Translations under genes and position numbers: made by a program
Notes under the pieces: generated by a model
Seen by the model: the letters and a program-made list of their open reading frames with translations, nothing else
Database searches by the model: none
Told to the model about the DNA's origin: nothing
Source: a virus
Reading direction: 5' to 3' (one strand)
Length of the DNA: 64,000 nucleotides
Virus record (IMG/VR): IMGVR_UViG_3300034101_003554
Coordinates: 32,001-96,000 of that record
In this document: piece after piece, positions 5,682-56,927 of the stretch
Layout: each line of letters opens with the position of its first letter
Numbering within the stretch: position 1 is the first letter of the stretch

Positions 5682-5729
5682 ATCAATAAATATTTAAATA
5701 AATACATAATATTTATAAATAAAAAGAAC

Positions 5730-6774: not shown

Positions 6775-6803
6775 ACAATATATTTATTAAATAAAAAAAC
6801 ATT

Positions 6804-8757: not shown

Positions 8758-8822
8758 AATTTCACTTGACAAACCAAAGTATATATTTTATACTTTCAAA
8801 ACAAATTCAAAAACAGAATATT

Positions 8823-10226
8823 ATGAACTTCTTAGACGCATTACAGACAGAAGATACTTTAACTGAAAATGGTATGGTTACAAATTCATCAACTCTTAAC
8901 GAGTGTGTGAATCTATTCTTTACTATTGGAGCAATGAGAGGACAAGACAAAGAAAGATTGTTAAGTCTATTCTCAAAGGCTTTCATTGAGAGTCCTAAAA
9001 CTGCATTGCGTATATTATTTTGGGCAAGAGATGTTCGTGGTGGTGCTGGTGAAAGACAAATATTCCGTGATATAATCCAACTCTTAGCAGAGGTGGCACC
9101 AAAAGTATTGGCAAAGAATATTAAATTCATCCCTGAATTCGGTCGTTGGGACGATCTTACAGTCCTATTCAACACAAAAGTGAATGACGATGCGATTGAC
9201 ACAATAGTACAAGGTTTAGAAGCCAAAAATGGACTATGTGCAAAGTGGATGCCAAGAAAAGGAGTTATTTTTAACTCAATCAGGAAGGTTATGGGTCTTA
9301 CACCAAAATCATTACGTAAAACTTTGGTTGTTCTTTCCAAAACGGTCGAGCAAAAGATGTGTGCTAACGAGTGGACAAATATTGAATACTCAAAAGTACC
9401 ATCTTTGGCTATGGCTCGATACACCAAAGCGTTCTCTAAACACAATTTAATTGGTTTTGGAGAATACTTGGAATCATTGAAAAAAGGTGAGACCAAAGTA
9501 AATGCTGGGGCTGTATATCCATATGATGTTATTAAAACCTTGGAACAAGGTGTCAAAGATTTGGCAATAGAACAATGGAAAGCTCTCCCCAACTTTATGG
9601 AAGGAAGTACTGAAAGAATTTTACCAGTAGTTGATGTATCAGGTTCAATGATTAATTTAGCCGGTAACAATAGTAATCTAACTTGTTTGGATGTCGCAGT
9701 ATCATTGGGATTATATATTTCAGAAAGAAATGAAGGTTCTTTTAAAGACTCTTTCATTACATTCTCTGAGAGACCGCAATTACAAAAGTTGAGAGGTAAT
9801 CTATATGATAGATACACACAACTACGTGTAGCTGAATGGGGTATGAGTACAAACTTGGAGTCTGTGTTCAAATTGATTTTAAACCAATCAATTAAACACA
9901 ATGTACCTCAAAGTGAGATGCCGACTAAAATCCTTATCTTATCAGATATGGAATTTAATCAAGCAACTGGTCGTAATAATTCCGCAATTCAAATGATTCG
10001 TGAAGAATATGAGAATAGTGGATATCAACTACCTGGTATTATCTTTTGGAACATACAATCGAGAGGAGATAACTTCCCTGTTCGTTTTGATGAAAGTGGG
10101 ACAGCGTTAATATCTGGTTTTAGTCCTTCAATCTTGAAGTCAATTCTTGGTGGAAAAGAACTATCACCAGTATTAATTATGACCGAAACCATTGAGTCCG
10201 AAAGATACAAGATGATAGAAGTTTAA
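8823..10226 (+). CDS. DUF2828-family protein (TROVE-like helical domain + vWA domain)
   Basis: RDVRGGAGER, FGRWDDL, AKWMPR, vWA MIDAS DVSGSM, ILSDMEF; ATG 8823. Confidence 0.8.
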   Translation: MNFLDALQTEDTLTENGMVTNSSTLNECVNLFFTIGAMRGQDKERLLSLFSKAFIESPKTALRILFWARDVRGGAGERQIFRDIIQLLAEVAPKVLAKNIKFIPEFGRWDDLTVLFNTKVNDDAIDTIVQGLEAKNGLCAKWMPRKGVIFNSIRKVMGLTPKSLRKTLVVLSKTVEQKMCANEWTNIEYSKVPSLAMARYTKAFSKHNLIGFGEYLESLKKGETKVNAGAVYPYDVIKTLEQGVKDLAIEQWKALPNFMEGSTERILPVVDVSGSMINLAGNNSNLTCLDVAVSLGLYISERNEGSFKDSFITFSERPQLQKLRGNLYDRYTQLRVAEWGMSTNLESVFKLILNQSIKHNVPQSEMPTKILILSDMEFNQATGRNNSAIQMIREEYENSGYQLPGIIFWNIQSRGDNFPVRFDESGTALISGFSPSILKSILGGKELSPVLIMTETIESERYKMIEV

Positions 10227-10233
10227 AAAAAAT

Positions 10234-10365
10234 GGAAAAATTGGTTTAAAAGGAATGATTACTGCAAAGTTAACACAACAAATCAATGAGGGGGGTTAGT
10301 CTCACTTTCCTAATCGCACGGGAATAAATTACTAACCAAAAACCCATTCTGAAACCAATTTTTCC
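10234..10365 (+). ncRNA. structured RNA motif, copy 1
   Basis: 14-bp closing stem GGAAAAATTGGTTT/AAACCAATTTTTCC, inner GAATG/CATTC, ATTACTGCAA. Confidence 0.6.
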
Positions 10366-10420
10366 TATTTTTTCTTGACTTAATGAAACTTTTAAATTAA
10401 ATTTACGTTATATAGAACAA

Positions 10421-10479
10421 AGGATAGATTCAGCAAATTAAAATATCAAATTTAGTCAAATTGAACAAAAACTATCCTG
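10421..10479 (+). ncRNA. structured RNA motif, copy 2
   Basis: AGGATAG/CTATCCT stem followed by ATTCAGCAA. Confidence 0.55.
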
Positions 10480-10487
10480 ACAATTAA

Positions 10488-10551
10488 GGTTATAACGAAT
10501 GAGTTCAGCAACTTAAAAAAGACAGCATATCTTAAAAAATCATTCCGAACC
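10488..10551 (+). ncRNA. structured RNA motif, copy 3
   Basis: GGTT/AACC and GAATGA/TCATTC stems with GTTCAGCAA. Confidence 0.55.
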
Positions 10552-10595
10552 AAACTTTTTAATAATTTAGTAATATTTATAAACAAATAACAAAA

Positions 10596-10691
10596 ATGAG
10601 AACATCGATAAACCATATTAGTAATTCAGTACAACCGCAATTTAAAAATTGTTGGTCAGCGGATTCTTATGGTTCAGGTGGAATCTCGTGA
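10596..10691 (+). CDS. putative leader peptide (31 aa) MRTSINHISNSVQPQFKNCWSADSYGSGGIS
   Basis: short ORF between ATATTTAT motif and a terminator preceding a tRNA cluster. Confidence 0.55.
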   Translation: MRTSINHISNSVQPQFKNCWSADSYGSGGIS

Positions 10692-10719
10692 TGGTAAAAA
10701 AAATATTAATTTTTTATAC

Positions 10720-10752
10720 AAACCCTGGACAAAAGACGTTCAGGGTTTTTTT
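10720..10752 (+). terminator. intrinsic terminator / attenuator 1
   Basis: AAACCCTGGAC/GTTCAGGGTTT stem + U-tract. Confidence 0.8.
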
Positions 10753-10782
10753 GTGTTCTTTGACATCGTTGGTAAAATATAA

Positions 10783-10855
10783 TCCCCCTTGGTATAAAGG
10801 TTGATTACATCAGATTTTGAATCTGAGGATGGTGGTTCAATTCCATCAGGGGGAA
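10783..10855 (+). tRNA. tRNA-Gln(TTG)
   Basis: cloverleaf; TCAGA-TTTTGAA-TCTGA. Confidence 0.9.
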
Positions 10856-10902
10856 CAATTTAAAGTGGTTAAATTTGACCACTTAAAAAAAAATATGCAA
10901 TA

Positions 10903-10943
10903 TTGGAACTTTAAGGGATGTGGGATGGTTATAATAATGTAAC
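10903..10943 (+). promoter_or_regulatory. ECF-sigma-like promoter, copy 1
   Basis: TTGGAACT-N16-GGTTATAATAATGTAAC, repeated at 19503 and 24758. Confidence 0.55.
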
Positions 10944-10963
10944 ACACTTAAAAAAATAATAAA

Positions 10964-11125
10964 ATGGAAATGAAAAATCTAACTGGAGCTGAAAAAGTAC
11001 TTTACAAAGCAACTTATGAATTCTTTCTTAATGTTGTAAAAGTTTCTGATGAATGTGCTCATAATGAAGCAATCAATAAGATTGACAAAACTAGAAAGTT
11101 GGCTAAAAAAGTATCTCGTTACTAA
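10964..11125 (+). CDS. small hypothetical protein (53 aa)
   Basis: ORF directly after the GGAACT promoter. Confidence 0.6.
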   Translation: MEMKNLTGAEKVLYKATYEFFLNVVKVSDECAHNEAINKIDKTRKLAKKVSRY

Positions 11126-11141
11126 AAAACTTGATAAAACA

Positions 11142-11173
11142 TTTGGAAATAAGAATAAAGGATTGTAATTTTG
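11142..11173 (+). promoter_or_regulatory. Bacteroidetes housekeeping-sigma promoter
   Basis: TTTG-N20-TAATTTTG. Confidence 0.75.
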
Positions 11174-11177
11174 TGGG

Positions 11178-11243
11178 AGAGTAAGGAAAGGTCGTAGGTA
11201 GCACTGTCCACAACCAGCCTTAAACGTGGTGGATACTTACTCT
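11178..11243 (+). ncRNA. candidate small structured RNA
   Basis: AGAGTAAG/CTTACTCT closing stem, TCCAC/GTGGA inner stem, GC-rich, between promoter and tRNA-Phe. Confidence 0.4.
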
Positions 11244-11250
11244 AAATTAT

Positions 11251-11326
11251 GGTGATGTTGCCAAGTTGGTCAAGGCGAACGACTGAAAATCGTTTTATAC
11301 CAGTTCGAATCTGGTCATCACCACCA
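11251..11326 (+). tRNA. tRNA-Phe(GAA)
   Basis: AACGA-CTGAAAA-TCGTT; CCA encoded. Confidence 0.9.
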
Positions 11327-11337
11327 AACAATTATAT

Positions 11338-11412
11338 GTGGTATGTACCCCAACTGGTAGAGGGGCATCATTGTGGATGATGTATGTGTGGGTTCAAATC
11401 CCATCATACCAC
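11338..11412 (+). tRNA. tRNA-His(GTG)
   Basis: CATCA-TTGTGGA-TGATG; G-1:C73. Confidence 0.9.
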
Positions 11413-11422
11413 CAAACAAATT

Positions 11423-11509
11423 GGAAAGTTAAGCTCGGCGGCCCGAGTCTACGTCTTGAAAACGATAGGTACAATTGTATTGTATGGGGATCGACACCTC
11501 AACTTTCCG
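11423..11509 (+). tRNA. tRNA-Ser(TGA), atypical D/T loops
   Basis: GGAAAGT/ACTTTCC, CTTGAAA loop, long V arm, G73. Confidence 0.75.
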
Positions 11510-11519
11510 CAACAAATTT

Positions 11520-11592
11520 AGTCCCATAGTTCAATGGATTAGAACCGAACAATACGAATGTTCAAATACCTGTTCGAATCGGGTTGGGACTA
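11520..11592 (+). tRNA. tRNA-Arg(ACG)
   Basis: GAACA-ATACGAA-TGTTC. Confidence 0.85.
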
Positions 11593-11601
11593 CAAACAAT
11601 T

Positions 11602-11688
11602 GGAGGATAAAGTAATCAGGGTCGTTACCACCGCCTGCTAAGCGAGTGGCACCAAGTATGGTGTGGGGTTCGTGTCCTCTGTCCTCCG
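11602..11688 (+). tRNA. tRNA-Ser(GCT)
   Basis: GGAGGAT/GTCCTCC, CTGCTAA loop, long V arm. Confidence 0.8.
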
Positions 11689-11705
11689 CAGAAAAATATT
11701 AATAA

Positions 11706-11771
11706 GATTAGAGCAGTTGAGTTCATAACTCAAAGGAATGCAGACAGTGGAGATGAGCGACCCACCTAATC
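11706..11771 (+). ncRNA. D-arm-less tRNA-like element with CAT anticodon stem-loop
   Basis: GATTAG/CTAATC closing stem; TTGAG-TTCATAA-CTCAA; GTGG/CCAC hairpin. Confidence 0.4.
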
Positions 11772-11801
11772 ATATTAAATGAAGAAAAATATTCCAAAGT
11801 G

Positions 11802-11833
11802 TTTGGAAATTAGAAAATGAAATCGTAATTTTG
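11802..11833 (+). promoter_or_regulatory. Bacteroidetes housekeeping-sigma promoter
   Basis: TTTG-N20-TAATTTTG. Confidence 0.75.
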
Positions 11834-11842
11834 TGATACAAT

Positions 11843-11972
11843 AGTCCTGTGGCGAAAGTTAAGGGTAGAGTGAAGATTGAATGTTCAGACACTCCTTAAT
11901 ACTAGGATTGGAGCGAAAGGTCTAACATAAACAATATGTAGCTTAATACAAGTTCGAATCTTGTCAGGACTA
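11843..11972 (+). ncRNA. tRNA-scaffold element 1 (130 nt)
   Basis: AGTCCTG/CAGGACT acceptor + A, ACAAG-TTCGAAT-CTTGT T arm, no anticodon arm. Confidence 0.75.
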
Positions 11973-11994
11973 CTAAAAATTAAAAACTAAAATT

Positions 11995-12171
11995 ATGGAC
12001 ACACATTATTGGGTAAGATTTGAGATTAGAATTGAAACTATCAACAATAGTTTAAACGCTGATGAACAAAAAGAAATCTTTGACTATATAAAATCAAGAA
12101 TTGACGGTAGAGATGACATAGATAGACCTAAAAAGTTGGATTGTTGTTTTGTCAATATGAGAAAATTTTAG
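11995..12171 (+). CDS. small hypothetical protein (58 aa)
   Basis: ORF with A-rich leader directly after element 1. Confidence 0.6.
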   Translation: MDTHYWVRFEIRIETINNSLNADEQKEIFDYIKSRIDGRDDIDRPKKLDCCFVNMRKF

Positions 12172-12184
12172 ATAAGTTAAATAT

Positions 12185-12295
12185 AGTCCTATGGCGGAAT
12201 TGGTAGACGCACTCCCCCTAGATAGGGAGAATATTGTTTCGACGCAATTAACCAGGTGATGGCATCTAATACAGGTTCGAATCCTGTCAGGACTA
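12185..12295 (+). ncRNA. tRNA-scaffold element 2 (111 nt)
   Basis: Leu-type D arm GGCGGAATTGGTAGACGC, canonical T arm, aberrant 8-nt loop and long insert. Confidence 0.75.
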
Positions 12296-12320
12296 CAAAA
12301 ATAAAAATAAAATTAGGAAT

Positions 12321-12554
12321 ATGAAAAAGTCACTTGAAGAAGTAAAGAAATTGAATACGAAAAATCTTCTACGTTTTTATAGAGCAGAACGTATAAGATT
12401 TTATGGTAGTGGATACTGGTGTAGTTGTGGGTGTGGTGAAATGATATGGGAAGCAAGAACATCACAAGCAGATATGGAACAAAAATATAATGAACATAAA
12501 GATTTTTTGAATGTAATTAAAGCAGAACTCAATACAAGAGAACATATTTCTTAA
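12321..12554 (+). CDS. hypothetical protein
   Basis: 77 aa with CSCGC; follows element 2. Confidence 0.65.
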   Translation: MKKSLEEVKKLNTKNLLRFYRAERIRFYGSGYWCSCGCGEMIWEARTSQADMEQKYNEHKDFLNVIKAELNTREHIS

Positions 12555-12575
12555 AATTGTTTGCGAAACTTTTAA

Positions 12576-12696
12576 AGTCTTGTGGCGGAAGTGATAGACG
12601 CTATTGTAAAAGGGTTCACATCCCAAAGATGAGCAAGTGTAATTGCTACATAGATAATGTCATATTATCATACAGGTTCGAATCCTGTCAGGACTA
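12576..12696 (+). ncRNA. tRNA-scaffold element 3 (121 nt)
   Basis: AGTCTTG..GGCGGAAGTGATAGACGC..ACAGGTTCGAATCCTGTCAGGACTA. Confidence 0.75.
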
Positions 12697-12721
12697 TTTT
12701 TTAACTTTAAAACAAATTATT

Positions 12722-12976
12722 ATGAAATCTTTACAAGAACTTTACGCAAACACACCAATTCAAGTGATTGTTGATTTCTATATTCAAAATAACACAGAAG
12801 TATGCCTACTCGAAGGTAAAATTCATAACGGTGACTTGTCTGCAATTGAAGAATTAGAAACCCTTGTTGCCAAAATCCTAAATTATGAGATTGAGAATTT
12901 TGAAGGTAAAGAGTGTTTTGAATCAGCATACCTGAAAAGAATGAAAATGTTGGTTAGAACTAAACAAATTCTTTAA
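12722..12976 (+). CDS. hypothetical protein
   Basis: ATG 12722 (MKSLQELY) after element 3. Confidence 0.65.
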   Translation: MKSLQELYANTPIQVIVDFYIQNNTEVCLLEGKIHNGDLSAIEELETLVAKILNYEIENFEGKECFESAYLKRMKMLVRTKQIL

Positions 12977-12992
12977 AAAAAAATTAAAACTT

Positions 12993-13204
12993 AGTCCTGT
13001 GGCGGAATTGGTAGACGCACATTAGCTGAGTGATGCAATAAGCAAGTACCCCTAATTAAAAGCCTAACGGATTTTACCCACTAGAACAATAAAAATCCTC
13101 AGATTGGGTTTAGGGTCTTACCAAACTCTCCGAAAACAGAGTAGGAGCTGTTAATAACCAAGATGGTAAGTGTTTATTTACAGGTTCGAATCCTGTCAGG
13201 ACTA
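12993..13204 (+). ncRNA. tRNA-scaffold element 4 (212 nt)
   Basis: same ends, about 160-nt insert. Confidence 0.75.
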
Positions 13205-13218
13205 CAAAAAATTAAAAA

Positions 13219-13368
13219 ATGTTAGTAATTATTGGTCTTTTATTTTTGATAATTGGAATCTTATTCTTAATTTTGTCTTACAAAACAAAGAACTCAGACT
13301 TGTTTATAGTTGGAATTATATTTCTAATTGTTCTTTTGTTTGGATTTATATATGGTTTAATAATATAG
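13219..13368 (+). CDS. small two-helix membrane protein (49 aa)
   Basis: MLVIIGLLFLIIGILFLILSYK...; follows element 4. Confidence 0.55.
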   Translation: MLVIIGLLFLIIGILFLILSYKTKNSDLFIVGIIFLIVLLFGFIYGLII

Positions 13369-13436
13369 GTGTAGCTCAGAGGTAGAGTGCTAGTTTTGGG
13401 AACTAGTGGTCGCTGGTTCAATCCCAGTCACCTATA
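13365..13436 (+). tRNA. tRNA-Pro(TGG)
   Basis: CTAGT-TTTGGGA-ACTAG. Confidence 0.9.
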
Positions 13437-13449
13437 CAAGATTTTTAAA

Positions 13450-13523
13450 GGTTCTATAGCTCAATTGGTTAGAGCACCCGACTCATAATCGGTAGGTTCT
13501 AGGTTCAAGTCCTAGTGGAACCA
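13450..13523 (+). tRNA. tRNA(CAT), probably Ile2
   Basis: CCGA-CTCATAA-TCGG, resembles lysidine-type tRNA-Ile2. Confidence 0.85.
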
Positions 13524-13538
13524 CAACAATTTTAACAA

Positions 13539-13613
13539 TGTCCTGTAACTCAGTTGGTTTAGAGTATTCGTCTGATACGCGAAAAGTCGTGAGTTCGAGC
13601 CTCACCAGGACAA
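13539..13613 (+). tRNA. tRNA-Ile(GAT)
   Basis: TTCGT-CTGATAC-GCGAA. Confidence 0.9.
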
Positions 13614-13621
13614 CAACAAAT

Positions 13622-13694
13622 GTCTCAGTAGCTCAGTGGTAGTAGCCCTTGACTGTTAATCAAGTTGTCGTAGGTTCGAATCCTACCTGGGACG
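13622..13694 (+). tRNA. tRNA-Asn(GTT)
   Basis: CTTGA-CTGTTAA-TCAAG. Confidence 0.9.
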
Positions 13695-13710
13695 CAAATT
13701 TTAATAAATT

Positions 13711-13938
13711 ATGGTTAATGTAAAAATTGGTGAATTTAAGGTTGGTGATAAGTTGTTTATTGATTATAGTGAAAATAATCCAAACAATAAACACATCGAA
13801 ATTAGAGCAATTGTGGATATGGAAGTGGTGATTTATTTGGATGAAAAAAATAACTACCATATGGAACCAATTCATTACTTCAATGTGTTATGTAGATGTA
13901 ACTCACTTAAAAAAATAACAAATGAAACGGACAATTAG
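13711..13938 (+). CDS. hypothetical protein
   Basis: 75 aa ORF. Confidence 0.6.
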   Translation: MVNVKIGEFKVGDKLFIDYSENNPNNKHIEIRAIVDMEVVIYLDEKNNYHMEPIHYFNVLCRCNSLKKITNETDN

Positions 13939-14077
13939 AAAACCAAGTTCATCCAAGTTTTATGAAATGCTTAGAAATAAGTACAACAACCACATTAAGA
14001 AACAAGAAAATGAAATGGAAGATTCTACAAATTAGATTCCAACCTAAAAAATTTAATTAACAATATATAATTTTCAT

Positions 14078-14587
14078 ATGAAAAAAGAGTTTTTATTTAA
14101 TGATAACATTATTGATTTTGAATTTGACGAAGTAATAGATAAAAAAATAAATGTTAAGGTATTTCACTATTTCAGTAATAATCTTTTATTTGAAAAAATT
14201 GAAGATAGAATAATTTGTCTTAAAGGTATTGGTAAATTATTCTTTCAAGAAGGATTCCCAATTTCATTATCTATTTCAGTATTAAAAGAACAAGGGGTTG
14301 AGGTTAGTATATTACACGTTGCTGATGAATGTTTAAAAAATGGGTGGTCACCAATAACAACATATAATAAATTAAAATCTGACTTTGAAGAAGATATTGA
14401 CAAAGAAAATCATTATGATTTACATTTATTAAAAAAATTTTGTGAATCAAATTATGAAGACCAAAGAGAAATGATATTTGAATATCTGTTTAAATGCAAA
14501 ACTGATGATGTCAGAAATAAAAAAAATGAAAATCCAATAGACTGGTTACAATTACTTGTAACTAGTGGGGCTAAAAATAAACTTTAA
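14078..14587 (+). CDS. hypothetical protein with AlaRS-like helix motif
   Basis: KLFFQEGFPISLSISVLKEQGVEV resembles the AlaRS KLYDTYGFPxDLT motif. Confidence 0.6.
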   Translation: MKKEFLFNDNIIDFEFDEVIDKKINVKVFHYFSNNLLFEKIEDRIICLKGIGKLFFQEGFPISLSISVLKEQGVEVSILHVADECLKNGWSPITTYNKLKSDFEEDIDKENHYDLHLLKKFCESNYEDQREMIFEYLFKCKTDDVRNKKNENPIDWLQLLVTSGAKNKL

Positions 14588-14596
14588 CAAGAAAAT

Positions 14597-14671
14597 GACC
14601 CTGTAGCTTAGCTGGTTTAAAGCACAATACTTTTAATATTGGGAGCGGGAGTTCAAATCTCCCCAGGGTCA
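14597..14671 (+). tRNA. tRNA-Lys(TTT)
   Basis: CAATA-CTTTTAA-TATTG. Confidence 0.9.
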
Positions 14672-14868
14672 CAACACAATAAGTTACGAAAGGTGTTATT
14701 AGAAAATAGTAGACATATTTTTTGACATTATGGGTCTGAAAATAAAAATTAAGGATGGTACGAAAGTTCAGGACTTTGACTGTAAACTAGGAAAGGTAAC
14801 TAAGATACGCGGTCTCGGTTCTATTGGAGTACAATTATCAGTATAGCCCAATCATTCTTTTATAAATA

Positions 14869-14953
14869 GTCCTTATGGTGTAATGGTTAAACATCCCACT
14901 CTTACAAAGTGGAGACGAGAAGTATAATCCTAGTTCGAATCTAGGTAAGGACA
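14869..14953 (+). tRNA. tRNA-Val(TAC) with long variable region
   Basis: CCACT-CTTACAA-AGTGG; 16-nt variable region. Confidence 0.8.
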
Positions 14954-14982
14954 CATTAAATAATTTTTAAATTACAAAAACG

Positions 14983-15231
14983 ATGAAAAAAATATTATTC
15001 CTTGGATTAATTTCTGTATTATTCCTTAGTTGTCAAAGAGAAGGTATAGAAGAACTAAAAACAGATAATGCGAATTATAACGTTGAGCTTCTATTTAAAG
15101 TTGATGGATGTAAGGTCTATCGATTTTGGGATAAAGGATACAAGTATTTTACAACTTGTGATGGATCCGTGACTCATAAACTAAGTGGAAAACACCCCAA
15201 AGATTTGGGAATACAGACAATCGTGAAATAA
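14983..15231 (+). CDS. putative lipoprotein
   Basis: signal peptide with lipobox FLSC. Confidence 0.7.
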   Translation: MKKILFLGLISVLFLSCQREGIEELKTDNANYNVELLFKVDGCKVYRFWDKGYKYFTTCDGSVTHKLSGKHPKDLGIQTIVK

Positions 15232-15467
15232 AGATTTGAACAATTAAGGGACCGAGCCTGCCTACAATTTCGGTGTGAGGTGCTAGTAGGTAATTGTTCT
15301 TTATGTTATAATAGTACCACGAGGCATCCCATAAGAACTGCTCACTACTGTGGTCTTGTTGCTTGTAAACGAATAGCCCAAGGTATAAGTTATGAAGCTT
15401 AACTCAACCTATCCCCCACTGACGAGTGGGGTGAAGTTGGGGGATTTCATATATTTATAGTAAAAAA

Positions 15468-15926
15468 ATGATGAAAGATTTAAGAATACGTATTAAAACA
15501 ATTTTAAAAGAAGAATTTGAAAATTATACTATAGTATATCGTGGTATTGGAGATAGAATTAACGCTACCTATGGTAAAGTATCTGATGATGGAATGGGTG
15601 TATTTTGGACAGATAATTTAACTATGGCCAAATGGTTTGCTGGACTTATTGATTATTCTGTTGATACTTATAGATATGAAAATATAAAAGGTTCTAAGGG
15701 TAAGATTTTAACTAAAGAAATAAAATTTGAAAATCCATATGTTGTTAATTCAGATGATGAAGATTATGACTCATTTCAAGTTTATATGGATGAAATATAC
15801 AAATTCGGTGGGGTTGACAAATATAAAGAAATGTTAATTGAAAAAAATTATGATGGTATCATATTAAGAAATTGTTCAACAAATTACTATGAAAATGGAA
15901 CTTATGATATCTTTATTGAGTTATAG
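15468..15926 (+). CDS. possible ADP-ribosyltransferase-fold protein
   Basis: VYRG, GVFWTDN..A..FA, YDGIIL motifs; late motif upstream. Confidence 0.5.
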   Translation: MMKDLRIRIKTILKEEFENYTIVYRGIGDRINATYGKVSDDGMGVFWTDNLTMAKWFAGLIDYSVDTYRYENIKGSKGKILTKEIKFENPYVVNSDDEDYDSFQVYMDEIYKFGGVDKYKEMLIEKNYDGIILRNCSTNYYENGTYDIFIEL

Positions 15927-15948
15927 GTAATATAAAAAGAAACAATAG

Positions 15949-16033
15949 GGTTGGGTGGCCGAGTTGGTTAAGGCACTAGTCTGCAAAACTATCGAATGAA
16001 AATTCATCGTGGGTTCGAATCCCTCCCCAACCT
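15949..16033 (+). tRNA. tRNA-Cys(GCA) with long variable arm
   Basis: TAGT-CTGCAAA-ACTA; U73; ATGAA/TTCAT extra arm. Confidence 0.85.
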
Positions 16034-16042
16034 CAAACAAAT

Positions 16043-16115
16043 GTAGATGTAGCTCAATTGGTAGAGTTGCTGATTCCAAACCAGCCGGTTGGGGGTTCGA
16101 GTCCCTCCATCTATG
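16043..16115 (+). tRNA. tRNA-Trp(CCA)
   Basis: GCTG-ATTCCAAAC-CAGC; G73. Confidence 0.9.
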
Positions 16116-16146
16116 CAAATTTTATCAACAATTAAAACTATTTATT

Positions 16147-19106: not shown

Positions 19107-19201
19107 AATAAAGACTCAACAACTTGATTAATTTTTGTAACAAACTTGACCTTTTGTATTATATCGTTATATTTAATAAAAAAATAGTAAAAACTTCACA
19201 A

Positions 19202-19273
19202 ATGAAACACAATCTCTATATGGACTTAACAACTAGAGCTGAGGGTAGAAATCCTCGGATGGAGATGGTATGA
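19202..19273 (+). CDS. putative leader peptide (23 aa) MKHNLYMDLTTRAEGRNPRMEMV
   Basis: short ORF followed by terminator and tRNA cluster. Confidence 0.5.
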   Translation: MKHNLYMDLTTRAEGRNPRMEMV

Positions 19274-19300
19274 TATAAGGTTTTAATTGTTAATAAAATC

Positions 19301-19339
19301 AAATCCATCTTCCTAAAAAAAAGATGGATTTTTTTTTTT
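19301..19339 (+). terminator. intrinsic terminator / attenuator 2
   Basis: AAATCCATCTT/AAGATGGATTT + U-tract. Confidence 0.8.
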
Positions 19340-19346
19340 GAGAGTG

Positions 19347-19378
19347 TTTGAAAATGTGAATTAGTAATTGTATCTTTG
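19347..19378 (+). promoter_or_regulatory. Bacteroidetes housekeeping-sigma promoter
   Basis: TTTG-N20-TATCTTTG. Confidence 0.7.
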
Positions 19379-19410
19379 TGATGTTCATTGAAATTGAGGG
19401 AAAAATATTT

Positions 19411-19485
19411 GGTACCATAGTTTAACGGCAAGAATATAAGGTTGTCACTCTTATGGTAGGGGTTCGATTCCCCTTGGTACCGCCA
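19411..19485 (+). tRNA. tRNA-Asp(GTC)
   Basis: TTGTCAC loop; G73; CCA encoded. Confidence 0.9.
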
Positions 19486-20173: not shown

Positions 20174-20412
20174 CAAAAAAAAAGTTTAAAAAAGATTTGG
20201 AATTAAGAAAATCAAATCGTAATTTTGTGAGACAATAGTCAGGTGGCGAAATGGTAGACGCACATCCGCAGGTGATTTAGTTTGAGGATACAGCGGCAGT
20301 CGAGGTCACAAACATATACAAATATAGGTTCGAATCCTATCCTGACTACAAAAAAAAAGTTTAAAAAAGATTTGGAATTAAGAAAATGAAATCGTAATTT
20401 TGTGACACAATA
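20174..20412 (+). repeat. about 63-bp near-identical promoter-containing direct repeat (about 20174-20237 and 20349-20412)
   Basis: AAAAAGTTTAAAAAAGATTTGGAATTAAGAAAAT(C/G)AAATCGTAATTTTGTGA(G/C)ACAATA flanking element 5. Confidence 0.9.
20237..20348 (+). ncRNA. tRNA-scaffold element 5 (112 nt)
   Basis: AGTCAGG/CCTGACT (covaried acceptor), GGCGAAATGGTAGACGC, ATAGG-TTCGAAT-CCTAT. Confidence 0.75.
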
Positions 20413-21169: not shown

Positions 21170-21372
21170 AGAAATGAAACCTTACATAGGATGGATTAGC
21201 ACCATTGAAAGAGAACTTGGCTCTCATAGGATCGCAACCTAAATCGAGAGTAATAATGACCCAAGTTGTTATGTAGGAGACCCTGCTCTACTGTGCACGG
21301 TATCAGGCTATGGGGAACAAACCATCGTAAAACTCTTGCCCATATAATACTTATGGAAGGACTTTCATTTCT
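21170..21372 (+). ncRNA. candidate structured RNA (about 200 nt)
   Basis: AGAAATGAAA/TTTCATTTCT closing stem, TACATA/TATGTA and AACTTGG/CCAAGTT inner stems. Confidence 0.5.
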
Positions 21373-22466: not shown

Positions 22467-22714
22467 AAAAAATATTTTGGTTTTCAACTTTAATCACTAT
22501 CTTTGTATCCTGTTACAAACACCCCACAATAGAACCTGGTGATATTGTTAAGAAGTGTGTGATTGATACGATGTATATTACAGAATCTCCATCTACAATT
22601 GAATTTGGTAAAAGATATAATTATAAAACCGATTGTGATGAATTGATAATGACAAGAAGAAGTGATGTATATAAAATAGGGGATACAATAACCTATGTTT
22701 ATAAAAGAAGATAA
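22463..22714 (+). CDS. putative lipoprotein
   Basis: lipobox FVSC. Confidence 0.65.
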   Translation: MKKIFWFSTLITIFVSCYKHPTIEPGDIVKKCVIDTMYITESPSTIEFGKRYNYKTDCDELIMTRRSDVYKIGDTITYVYKRR

Positions 22715-24487: not shown

Positions 24488-24655
24488 ATGAGTGATTTAG
24501 AAACAAAACTTCAAATTTTACAAGAGCAATTAAAACTCAACAATGAAAAACTTGAACATATGAGAGATGAAATAAAGTTTAGTAAAACTTTTATTTATTT
24601 TGATTTAGCATTGTTGGGATTAATTTTGTTATACGTAATTTTGTTTGTAATTTAA
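24488..24655 (+). CDS. small coiled-coil/membrane protein (55 aa)
   Basis: ORF directly after element 6. Confidence 0.6.
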   Translation: MSDLETKLQILQEQLKLNNEKLEHMRDEIKFSKTFIYFDLALLGLILLYVILFVI

Positions 24656-24665
24656 AGTGGAATTT

Positions 24666-24737
24666 AGTCCTGTAGCCAAATTGGTAAAGGCCTCATGTAT
24701 GGATGAGAGAGTATGGGTTCGAATCCTGTCGGGACTA
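24666..24737 (+). ncRNA. tRNA-scaffold element 7 (72 nt, 6-nt pseudo-anticodon loop)
   Basis: AGTCCTG/CGGGACT; CTCAT-GTATGG-ATGAG. Confidence 0.7.
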
Positions 24738-24831
24738 TTAAAAAATAATTCTAACCTTTGGAACTAAATGATAGGTAAAAAGGTTTATAGTTATGTAAGT
24801 TGAATATTAACACACAAAAAAATTAAAAATT

Positions 24832-25289: not shown

Positions 25290-25403
25290 GGTCAAGTGGC
25301 GGAATGGAAGACGCTAAGTAAGATGGTGTACGTTTGTCCCATAAGAAAGACCGATGCAACAGAAATGTGAAGGGTCGTATAGGTTCAAATCCTATCTTGA
25401 CTA
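25290..25403 (+). ncRNA. tRNA-scaffold element 9 (114 nt)
   Basis: GGTCAAG/CTTGACT; GGCGGAATGGAAGACGC; T arm. Confidence 0.75.
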
Positions 25404-27612: not shown

Positions 27613-28265
27613 AAATGATATTAACAGAACAACAAGAAAAATTTCTTGAGTTTGTCAAAGAACAACATGGCACTCAAGTGAGAAAATATACGGGAGAACC
27701 TTACTGGACTCATCCATTGGCTGTCGCAGAATTAGTGAATAAATATAAATCAGATTCTTTTAGTAATGGTGAAGTATTTGCTATAGAAATATCGTTAGGT
27801 CATGATTTATTGGAAGATACTCCTTGTACTGTTGAAACTTTAAGAAAAAAATTAAGTGAGATTGGTTATCCCTATTTAAGTACTGAGATGATTGTTTCAG
27901 GTATTGGTCATTTAACCGACACCTATACCAAAGAAGCTTATCCTAAACTCAATAGAGCCAAAAGAAAAGCTATGGAAGTTGAAAGACTTGGTAGAATCCC
28001 TGCTTATTGTCAAACAGTTAAATATGCTGACTTGATTGAGAATATTGCATCTATTGTTGAGCATGATAAATCTTTCGCTGTTACTTATCTTAAAGAGAAA
28101 AAAGAGTTACTTAAGAATATGAGGGGTGGAAATTTTAATCTTTACTTGAAAGCGATAGAAGTTTATTTGGAAGCTTTAAAAACTCTTGAGAGGGGTAAAG
28201 GATTTTGATGAAATTCCTTATTACCCAAAGTAGAACCTTTCACCATTCAACATAAATAAAAATGA
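27582..28265 (+). repeat. 37-bp direct repeat (27582-27618, 28229-28265), 1 mismatch, flanking the HD gene
   Basis: AGTAGAACC(C/T)TTCACCATTCAACATAAATAAAAATGA. Confidence 0.9.
27615..28208 (+). CDS. HD-domain hydrolase, RelA/SpoT hydrolase (Mesh1/SAH)-like
   Basis: H.TQVRKYTGEPYWTHP, HDLLEDT, VKYADLIEN. Confidence 0.8.
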   Translation: MILTEQQEKFLEFVKEQHGTQVRKYTGEPYWTHPLAVAELVNKYKSDSFSNGEVFAIEISLGHDLLEDTPCTVETLRKKLSEIGYPYLSTEMIVSGIGHLTDTYTKEAYPKLNRAKRKAMEVERLGRIPAYCQTVKYADLIENIASIVEHDKSFAVTYLKEKKELLKNMRGGNFNLYLKAIEVYLEALKTLERGKGF

Positions 28266-31684: not shown

Positions 31685-32125
31685 ATGAAATTATCTGATT
31701 TTAAATCACAAATTAAAACCTTAAAAAAAGAAAATACTATTACTAATATAAAAGGTGATGATAATATTGATTATGGTAATCTTTTAGATGGGATTCTTAC
31801 TTGGTTAAAAACATATGGTGATGTACAATTACAAAACCTATCTACCGATAATAAAAATGTTTCAATTACAATACTTGGTACAAATAAGAATTCTTTAAAA
31901 GATTATTTAGTTAAGGGTTACACTAATCATAATGCAACTTGGGATAATAATAATTCTATACTTAAAATGTCATTAAACCCTATTAGTAAAGATAATGCTA
32001 CAACTAATACAACAACAATTGATTCATCAATACCAAATGTATATGATACAATTGCAAAAAGTATATTTCCTGTTAATGAAGAAAAACTTTTTGAAAATAT
32101 AAATCGAATAAAACAATTATTTTAA
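31685..32125 (+). CDS. hypothetical late protein
   Basis: ends ENINRIKQLF. Confidence 0.65.
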   Translation: MKLSDFKSQIKTLKKENTITNIKGDDNIDYGNLLDGILTWLKTYGDVQLQNLSTDNKNVSITILGTNKNSLKDYLVKGYTNHNATWDNNNSILKMSLNPISKDNATTNTTTIDSSIPNVYDTIAKSIFPVNEEKLFENINRIKQLF

Positions 32126-52442: not shown

Positions 52443-52609
52443 AAGTTTTATTACAAATTTTAATAAGGATAATCCAAAATAAGGGTTATCCTTATTTTTT
52501 TTGTTATATCATAATATTTATTTTATATAAAAACATATTTTTTTGATTTATTTAATCTTAAAAAATATTTTTTTAAAAAATTAACATATTTATAGAATAA
52601 AAAATAAAA

Positions 52610-56877: not shown

Positions 56878-56927
56878 TTTATTTTTATCCAACTAATAGA
56901 TATTTATAAAGAAAAAAATTAATCAAT

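Follow-up and report, generated by a model that had tools for sequence, protein, structure and literature searches.

Organization of the locus

The virus record IMGVR_UViG_3300034101_003554 of IMG/VR is 141 kb long, and the part of it analysed here (positions 32,001 to 96,000, a stretch of 64,000 nucleotides (nt) that is called the window throughout and supplies all coordinates) carries at least 24 transfer RNA (tRNA) genes spread over 10.7-26.7 kb. The present analysis concerns the module in front of the first of these genes, in which a phage-type sequence motif, a 31-codon open reading frame (ORF; leader 1), an intrinsic terminator, a boxA-like element and tRNA-Gln follow one another, together with a second module of the same layout (leader 2) in front of a second group of tRNA genes. 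Both are candidates for leader-peptide attenuators of phage tRNA genes. All elements of module 1 that had been listed in an earlier reading of the bare letters (hereafter the sequence-only reading), including a GTTCAGG repeat shared by the ORF and the terminator, were recovered at the positions assigned to them (Table 1).

The window has a G+C content of 29% and few Shine-Dalgarno-like signals, and related contigs come from fresh water and reach 362 kb. Promoter-like sites of the form TTG-N17-21-TAnnTTTG sit directly before several tRNAs, which makes the Bacteroidota the probable host phylum. The tRNA genes considered here form two blocks: block 1, whose genes represent 13 amino acids, follows module 1, and block 2 follows leader 2 and comprises the tRNAs for Asp, Glu, Met, Tyr, Gly, Ala, Thr, Arg and Leu.

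Table 1. Features of the two modules and of the associated tRNA region
Feature	Position	Strand	Remarks
Phage-type promoter/initiation motif TAATATTTATAA (core ATATTTAT at 10573-10580)	10571-10582	+	14-25 nt upstream of the leader 1 ATG
Leader ORF 1, 31 codons and stop, MRTSINHISNSVQPQFKNCWSADSYGSGGIS	10596-10691	+	Open in 24/24 complete distinct sequences from 5 clades
Sensing run of leader 1, codons 1-21	10596-10658	+	All residues except Thr3 from the 13 amino acids of block 1
Region 1, AACCATA	10612-10618	+	Partner of region 2 in the untranslated ORF hairpin
Region 2, TATGGTTCAGG	10668-10678	+	Proposed 5' strand of the antiterminator, 11-21 nt before the stop codon
Small A/U hairpin between leader 1 stop and terminator	10694-10719	+	Predicted in every clade from differing sequences
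Terminator 1, stem 10720-10730 / 10738-10748	10720-10752	+	11 pairs, one G-U; loop 7; T7 to 10752; -14.9 kcal/mol
boxA-like element TGTTCTTTGACATCGTTG, including TGTTCTTTGACA at 10754-10765	10754-10771	+	Nearly invariant in all clades
tRNA-Gln(UUG)	10783-10856	+	First gene past terminator 1
tRNA block 1: Gln, Phe, His, Arg(ACG), Ser(GCU), Pro, Met, Ile, Asn, Lys, Val, Cys, Trp	10783-16116	+	
Phage-type motif TATATTTAA before leader 2	19168-19176	+	Overlapped by a sigma-70-like match, TTGACC-16-TATATT
Leader ORF 2, MKHNLYMDLTTRAEGRNPRMEMV	19202-19273	+	Codons 5-16 hold exactly the 9 amino acids of block 2; sequence unrelated to leader 1
Region 2 of module 2, GGAGATGG	19261-19268	+	Pairs with CCATCTTC in the 5' arm and loop of terminator 2
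Terminator 2, AAATCCATCTT / AAGATGGATTT, T-run	19301-19339	+	Bidirectional; listed on the minus strand by the scan
Bacteroidota host-type promoter-like site TTG-N20-TATCTTTG	19348-19378	+	Between terminator 2 and boxA-like element 2
boxA-like element 2, TGTTCATTGAAA	19382-19393	+	Before tRNA-Asp
tRNA-Asp	19411-19485		First tRNA of block 2
Bacteroidota-type promoter-like sites TTG-N17-21-TAnnTTTG	11143-11173, 11803-11833, 13246-13275, 19348-19378	+	Most of these and of the sites in the next row just before tRNAs or tRNA-like elements
Further TTG-N17-21-TAnnTTTG promoter-like sites	20197-20227, 20372-20402, 22477-22505, 24600-24643	+	With the sites of the row above, suggest internal promoters in the tRNA region

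A conserved coding leader before the first tRNA block

Relatives of module 1 were collected by two separate scans, one for the peptide core and the other for a pattern consisting only of the boxA-like element and the 5' end of tRNA-Gln, which together yielded 60 loci and 25 distinct sequences from five clades of freshwater phages (A to E). The intergenic region can be aligned end to end in relatives at 90%, 79% and 77% identity. With the second pattern, of which the ORF was no part, 24 complete distinct sequences were obtained, and all 24 possess both the ORF and the terminator. The peptides are 30, 31 or 35 residues long, end in TGA or TAA, and keep their frame through a 3-nt deletion and a 6-nt insertion; within the core S-V/I-Q-P-Q-F-x-N-C-W (codons 11-20), six of the eight variable columns are third codon positions. 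The third-position variation and the frame-keeping insertions and deletions argue that selection acts on leader 1 as a coding sequence. In clade D (L089/L102), a gene for a 205-residue protein has been inserted between conserved RNA units and leader 1 with the unit from the ATATTTAT motif to tRNA-Gln undisturbed, which fixes the 5' border of module 1. The inserted protein has a signal-peptide-like N-terminus.

Leader 1 also has the expression signals of ordinary phage genes, since a wATATTTAT motif with an A-rich stretch, 8-35 nt before the ATG, precedes 24 of the 58 large ORFs, compared with about 6% expected. This motif is probably a phage-specific promoter or initiation signal, judging from its placement, and its ATATTTAT-type version before leader 1 is retained in all clades, including clade D with the gene insertion upstream of it. 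Other instances in the whole window include 336-345 and 1948-1957 on the minus strand, as well as 5709-5718, 6780-6789, 52586-52595 and 56900-56909.

The composition of the peptide is as the sequence-only reading had described it, with 18 distinct amino acids, neither Leu nor Glu, and NCG codons, of which there are four; such diversity in 31 residues is attained by 1% of the 31-residue windows of the phage's own proteins. In the phage's large ORFs, CCG accounts for 2% of Pro, TCG for 3% of Ser and GCG for 10% of Ala codons. No Pfam match was found for leader 1 or the adjacent small ORFs. An exact peptide look-up in a collection of 15 billion proteins returned only the unnamed 35-residue variant of clade C, with the peptide of the window and three other variants not there, and a similarity search of 10200-11400 against deposited phage genomes matched tRNA-Gln alone.

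Correspondence between leader codons and tRNA blocks

The strongest regularity concerns which amino acids the leaders contain. Residues 1-20 of leader 1 include every one of the 13 block-1 amino acids, with Thr as the only other residue (P = 2.5e-6 under independent, identically distributed residues). Among 14,490 real 20-residue windows (from 15,592 residues of phage proteins), none holds more than 11 block-1 amino acids, and the only one of 258 small ORFs in all six frames that reaches 13 is leader 1 itself. Residues 5-16 of leader 2 contain all nine block-2 amino acids in 12 positions and exactly that set (P = 7.9e-5 in the same model); none of 14,954 real 12-residue windows holds more than eight, and leader 2 is again unique among the small ORFs. 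When random amino-acid sets of equal size were drawn instead, P was 7e-4 for leader 1 and 1e-4 for leader 2. The leaders do not match each other's blocks (4 and 6 amino acids), and jointly they cover all 20 amino acids.

Variation among relatives stays within these sets. Across 21 leader 1 sequences, Thr is the sole residue of codons 1-21 from outside the 13-amino-acid set, all other substitutions falling inside it, and the six differences between the leader 2 cores of clades A and B1 all lie inside the 9-amino-acid set. The suggestion of a general translation-stress sensor in the sequence-only reading therefore survives in part: the sensing of translation is supported, whereas the sensor is not general: the first 20-21 codons of leader 1 spell out the 13 block-1 amino acids, and the others appear in leader 2.

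A second module and recurrence in unrelated viral contigs

Module 2 repeats the order of module 1 with an unrelated leader sequence. The homologue of leader 2 in clade B1 reads MKNYLYTGETLRAEDLNLRNGRV, and its residues 4-16 are all inside the block-2 set. The TAnnTTTG element of the promoter-like site at 19348-19378 is retained in five clades, those lacking leader 2 included. L206-L209 carry an insertion of about 500 nt that separates terminator 2 from boxA-like element 2.

The 18-nt boxA-like sequence recurs 6-18 nt before tRNAs in five unrelated viral contigs. Four contigs (L155, L153, L119 and L158), located by this 18-mer alone, each possess an upstream small ORF of unrelated sequence and a terminator 22-28 nt past its stop codon. 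The amino acids of the downstream tRNAs are fully present in the respective ORFs (5/5, 5/5, 10/10 and 7/7, in the same order), with P values of 5e-5 to 6e-3 against random sets of equal size, and a 6-7-nt copy of the terminator 3' arm lies near the end of each ORF. Counting the two modules of the window, a stop-to-terminator gap of 22-28 nt and a 3'-arm copy near the ORF end are found in all six. Judged by these sequences, the checklist-leader design appears to be widespread among large phages with Bacteroidota-type promoters.

Terminators, proposed antiterminator pairing and the stall model

Between 8000 and 27500, the only strong plus-strand terminators are those at 10720-10752 and 19301-19339, one in each module. 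The stem of terminator 1 is conserved in all clades and its loops are variable. The heptamer GTTCAGG at 10672-10678, inside region 2, is identical to 10738-10744 of the 3' arm and complementary to 10724-10730 of the 5' arm. The sequence-only reading had proposed it as an antiterminator; the match is indeed present, but it is weak when taken alone and lacks compensatory covariation. In shuffled versions of the ORF, an exact 7-mer of the 3' arm turns up with P = 0.018. Over the six modules, the P values of ORF-arm complementarity against shuffles are 0.22, 0.14, 0.0025, 0.05, 0.17 and 0.035, which combine by Fisher's method to about 4e-4, or to about 0.004 for four independent modules; the complementarity is significant only when modules are combined. 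As for the expectation that the ORF and the arm duplication would covary in relatives, the pairing is kept in 90.6% of cells across 20 distinct sequences, with one-sided changes only. A shuffle control of this pair conservation is uninformative, as the 3' columns hardly vary.

The predicted fold of 10573-10782 has a z score of -3.9. In the window, the untranslated leader 1 folds as a single long hairpin of -23.9 kcal/mol that pairs region 2 with 10612-10618, takes up part of the start codon and leaves the terminator arm free. In clade B, a change from UCA..UUG to UCG..UCG exchanges an A-U for a G-C pair and so preserves the pair at the corresponding place of the ORF hairpin. The RNAalifold consensus comprises the apical hairpin and the terminator only, with no double changes, and the outer hairpin is not kept in register.

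The alternative structures, whose folding had been proposed as a check along with the original claim, were compared by a partition-function model in which the aminoacyl (A) site was placed at each codon in turn, the ribosome was assumed to reach some 12 nt beyond the codon in that site, and folding was restricted to the RNA present before the 3' arm is transcribed. In module 1, the probability that the seven loop-proximal nt in the 5' arm pair with upstream RNA is 0.65-0.99 when the A site is at codons 2-22 (clades A, B and E) or 2-24 (clades C and D, whose leader 1 has 6 extra nt, i.e., two extra codons), and at most 0.2 when the ribosome is at the stop codon. In module 2, the values for the window are at least about 0.9 at codons 2-16, and those for clade B1 are 0.74-0.85 at codons 2-15; with the ribosome at the stop codon the probability is 0. 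The modelled switch point thus lies at codons 22-24 in module 1 and 16-17 in module 2, and the four foreign modules behave alike in the model. The set-matched run ends at residue 21, 21, 27, 25 and 21 in the five clades for module 1 and at residue 16 in both cases for module 2, which places it -2 to +3 codons from the switch point in all seven. The model thus agrees with what had been predicted: a stall inside the matched run would favour the antiterminator, and a ribosome near the stop codon would leave the terminator arm free.

An Rfam search (cmscan) of 8000-30000 with E values up to 1 returned tRNAs, freshwater-1 and chance hits only, with nothing in 10573-10782 or 19160-19400. A mechanism of the pyrBI type, with the terminator blocked directly by the ribosome, was considered and rejected, given that the ORF ends 28 nt before the stem.

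The boxA-like element, promoters and transcripts

Compared with the gamma-proteobacterial boxA consensus GYTCTTTAANA (PMC5725501), GTTCTTTGACA of module 1 agrees at 10 of 11 positions and the element of module 2 at 9 of 11, although this consensus may not be that of the host. Across the whole window, boxA matches with up to two mismatches occur at chance level. A second exact copy of TGTTCTTTGACA, at 27653-27664 on the minus strand, lies inside a plus-strand ORF with no tRNA downstream and may be due to chance. From its sequence and position, the candidate boxA probably shields the untranslated read-through RNA from Rho; lying past the terminator, it cannot be what overcomes the terminator.

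No sigma-70-like or TAnnTTTG promoter site was found between the T-tract and tRNA-Gln (10753-10782) in any clade. A boxA-like element before tRNA-Gln would be of use only to transcripts that arrive from upstream. TTGACA at 10760 was considered as a -35 element and rejected, as the matching -10 element would fall within the tRNA. A scan for sigma-70-type promoters gave the same number of hits as shuffled sequences. As regards transcripts, one metatranscriptome contig spans 10540-10752 and ends at the last T without a loose end, a weak hint of termination at this point, and RNA contigs beginning at 10459 and 10540 indicate transcription from upstream of the ATATTTAT motif. The assembled metatranscriptome contigs from four runs do not cover 10753-11123, tRNA regions being poorly assembled and filtered, and they accordingly say nothing about read-through.

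Proposed mechanism

The evidence computed here, namely conservation, the coding signature, the codon-set match, the terminator, the complementarity and the geometry of the elements, points to a multivalent ribosome-mediated (leader-peptide) transcription attenuator that feeds phage tRNA genes, a reading to which a probability of about 0.6 is assigned. Its core was already present in the sequence-only reading (a translated leader, a terminator, a maskable antiterminator, read-through upon stalling and tRNAs as output) and draws support from the conservation, the coding signature, module 2, the four foreign modules and the codon-set match. Five parts of the scheme are inferred: that the ORF is translated, that ribosomes stall on it, that the structures switch, that Nus factors bind, and how far the regulated transcript extends. 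The scheme would operate as follows.

A short transcript would begin at the phage-type promoter motif, and the 31-codon ORF would be translated as RNA polymerase proceeds to the terminator. Codons 1-21 would serve as a checklist for the 13 amino acids of the tRNAs that follow in block 1, such that slow reading of any checklist codon would stall the ribosome upstream of region 2 (10668-10678). Such a stall would free region 2, its partner in the ORF hairpin being covered or melted, and the free region 2 could then pair with that half of the terminator 5' arm which adjoins the loop, so that the terminator would not nucleate and the polymerase would read on. The read-through RNA would pass the boxA-like element, likely a Nus-type anti-Rho signal for an untranslated RNA operon, and continue into tRNA-Gln and onward. 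If all codons are read fast, a ribosome at the last codons or the stop codon would cover region 2, the terminator would form, and the transcript would end at 10752. The outcome would be negative feedback on the supply of exactly the checklist tRNAs, and module 2 (19202-19393) would exert the same control for the other nine amino acids.

On a broader scale, it is an even call whether giant Bacteroidota phages run closed-loop control of tRNA supply, with each block gated by a checklist of the amino acids that it serves and switched on when any of these tRNAs is limiting. Limitation could arise from a mismatch in codon usage with the host or from host defence nucleases that cleave tRNAs.

Several observations weigh against an attenuator of this kind or restrict its role. 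The amino-acid match is better than the codon match: three Ser codons (TCG/TCA) have no phage tRNA, and the Arg codon AGA is read by a block-2 tRNA (wobble reading). Leader content does not follow recent gains and losses of tRNA genes. In clade B1 (G002, locus L196), the tRNAs for Phe, His, Arg, Ser, Ile, Asn and Lys have been lost from block 1 and that for Val has moved to block 2, and leader 1 is unchanged and keeps codons for the seven lost tRNAs; from such comparisons, tRNA content appears to turn over faster than the leader. A covariation considered for Arg, in which a leader without Arg would accompany the absence of tRNA-Arg(ACG), holds in clade C and fails in clade D. Leader 2 occurs in only two of the five clades and is lacking in clades C, D and E. 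The antiterminator is short (seven pairs, one of them G-U), its duplex energy with wobble pairs is equalled by 17-26% of dinucleotide shuffles, and no compensatory double changes were found in the 20 distinct sequences. In module 1 of clades B, C and D and in module 2, the untranslated state does not leave the terminator arm free. As the terminator (-14.9 kcal/mol) wins at equilibrium, the switch must be kinetic. Finally, host-type promoter-like sites lie within block 1 (11143, 11803 and 13246) and between terminator 2 and tRNA-Asp (19348), which means that the attenuators may gate only part of tRNA expression, or add to a basal level.

Alternative explanations

Several other explanations of module 1 were weighed. 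The leader may be a translation sensor matched to its block whose output is something other than a hairpin switch, such as an effect on Rho or Nus, transcript stability or processing of the tRNA precursor, or an action of the leader RNA or peptide in trans. The strong codon-set match beside an antiterminator pairing that is weak and without covariation would fit such a sensor, as would the boxA-like element after both terminators and the sRNA-like form (that is, like a small RNA) of an ORF folded into a stable hairpin that ends in a terminator; attenuator-derived small RNAs and trans-acting leader peptides have been described in Sinorhizobium (PMC6614838, PMC7968998). However, a 3'-arm copy near the ORF end and a gap of 22-28 nt in six modules are predicted by the hairpin switch and not needed by the other outputs, and only the hairpin switch requires the matched run to end where a stalled ribosome starts to cover region 2, as it does. 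An output of this other kind is thus regarded as unlikely, if worth keeping in view. A lower standing is given to the view that the terminator merely ends the upstream unit (the DUF2828 gene, structured RNAs and a small gene), with the ORF exerting no control and tRNA-Gln transcribed from an unrecognised promoter overlapping the boxA-like motif. That motif does hold TTCTTTG, which resembles the Bacteroidota -7 element TAnnTTTG; TAnnTTTG sites lie between terminator and tRNAs in module 2 and in unrelated contigs; and the RNA contigs starting at 10459 and 10540 begin upstream of the ATATTTAT motif. Yet neither the TA nor a -33 TTG at the right spacing is found in any clade, the boxA-like motif of other phages lies downstream of clear promoters and matches boxA at 10/11, and the 13/13 and 9/9 codon-set matches and their replication would be left unexplained, so that this view is considered improbable.

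The remaining two explanations concern the nature of the ORF itself. It could encode a functional micro-protein or an arrest peptide in which the core QPQFxNCW matters as a sequence, the match to the tRNA set being a coincidence of composition. The core S-V-Q-P-Q-F-x-N-C-W is nearly invariant in five clades, beyond what a checklist needs, but the N-terminal half varies freely and yet within the 13-amino-acid set, leader 2 and the four other leaders share the set-matching with unrelated sequences, no Pfam match exists, and the 35-residue clade C variant is the only one on record among proteins; a micro-protein or arrest peptide is accordingly judged very improbable. Still less credence is given to an untranslated ORF whose open frame is incidental to a structured non-coding RNA (a long hairpin plus the terminator). 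The fold statistics given above (z = -3.9 for 10573-10782, -23.9 kcal/mol for the ORF hairpin, a partly paired start codon) would suit it, whereas third-position variation, in-frame insertions and deletions, and the retention of ATG and stop in 24 distinct sequences are signs of translation, the upstream motif is that of 24/58 real genes, and the register of the outer hairpin is not conserved.

Relationship to known systems and significance

Leader-peptide attenuators of amino-acid biosynthesis operons are well known from enterobacteria (trpL, hisL, leuL, pheL and thrL). The modules described here share with the trpL/hisL type a short ORF with diagnostic codons, an intrinsic terminator tens of nt past its stop codon, and a segment near the ORF end that can pair with the earlier ORF or with the terminator 5' arm, between which the position of the ribosome would decide. 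They differ in that phage tRNA genes rather than enzymes are the target, that 13 or 9 amino acids appear mostly once or twice each instead of a run of one codon, that a boxA-like element lies past the terminator, and that no sequence or Rfam relationship exists. The closest likeness is to multivalent attenuation, as in the ilvGMEDA leader (Ile, Leu and Val) and the thr leader (Thr and Ile), in which several amino acids are represented in one leader and a stall at any of them relieves termination. Those leaders, however, sense two or three amino acids of one pathway, whereas the present ones hold 13 and 9, together all 20, with tRNAs as output.

Components of the translation apparatus are also controlled in this manner. 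The pheM leader of pheST senses one amino acid, and T-box riboswitches bind uncharged tRNA directly without translation, synthetases being the targets. The likeness consists in the regulation, here proposed, of translation-apparatus parts by the state of the cognate tRNA through a choice between terminator and antiterminator; the differences are the tRNA-gene target, the many amino acids sensed and the lack of a T-box Rfam match here. Like the boxA of ribosomal RNA (rRNA) operons and of lambdoid nut sites (NusB/NusE), the boxA-like element is placed in a transcribed leader ahead of untranslated stable-RNA genes, for which shielding from Rho would be useful. In contrast to the consensus boxA, it has G for A at position 8, lies past a terminator and not before it, and would be a binding site for Nus factors only putatively.

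Phage tRNA genes are usually regarded as constitutive aids to codon usage or as substitutes for tRNAs that host defences have destroyed, and, to our knowledge, little is known about how their expression is controlled. In a literature search of incomplete coverage, which does not prove absence, no description of phage tRNA genes under the control of a leader peptide came up. What is new here is the target (tRNA genes), the breadth (13 and 9 amino acids) and the setting (a phage). If the proposal is true, these would be the first natural attenuators with tRNA genes as output, sensing up to 13 amino acids at once, and phages would be able to gauge decoding speed codon by codon and to produce tRNAs on demand. 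Attenuation would then extend to tRNA genes, to 9-13 amino acids per sensor and 20 per genome, and to viruses of Bacteroidota. Moreover, it would provide a rule that uses sequence only to find such regulators and to define functional tRNA operons in uncultured phages, as well as small natural components with which the supply of many tRNAs could be sensed.

Other features of the region

Four tRNA-like elements with inserts lie on the plus strand at 12185-12295, 20237-20348, 25290-25403 and 24666-24737; they are Rfam tRNA matches of 33-41 bits with lengths of 110-114 nt or odd anticodon loops, and ARAGORN calls only one of them, as tRNA-??? at 24665-24738. Between tRNA-Tyr and tRNA-Gly, an Rfam match to the freshwater-1 RNA (RF02979) at 21272-21332 on the plus strand scores 58.9 bits (E 2e-11), under the gathering score of 72.

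The gene upstream of leader 1 (8766-10226) encodes a DUF2828/DUF7788 (TROVE/vWA-like) protein. Directly after it come some 370 nt that do not code for protein, are structured and show high conservation. Three structured RNA units can be recognized at 10234-10551, each with a stem, (A/G)TTCAGCAA or TACTGCAA, a variable loop and the complementary strand, and their conservation exceeds that of the DUF2828/DUF7788 gene. A piece of 52-54 nt that includes a T-arm-like GGTTCAAAYC is absent from the window at 10287/10288 and present in all clade A relatives and in RNA contigs of three studies. It is possible that the three RNA units are Y-RNA-like partners of the DUF2828/DUF7788 protein.

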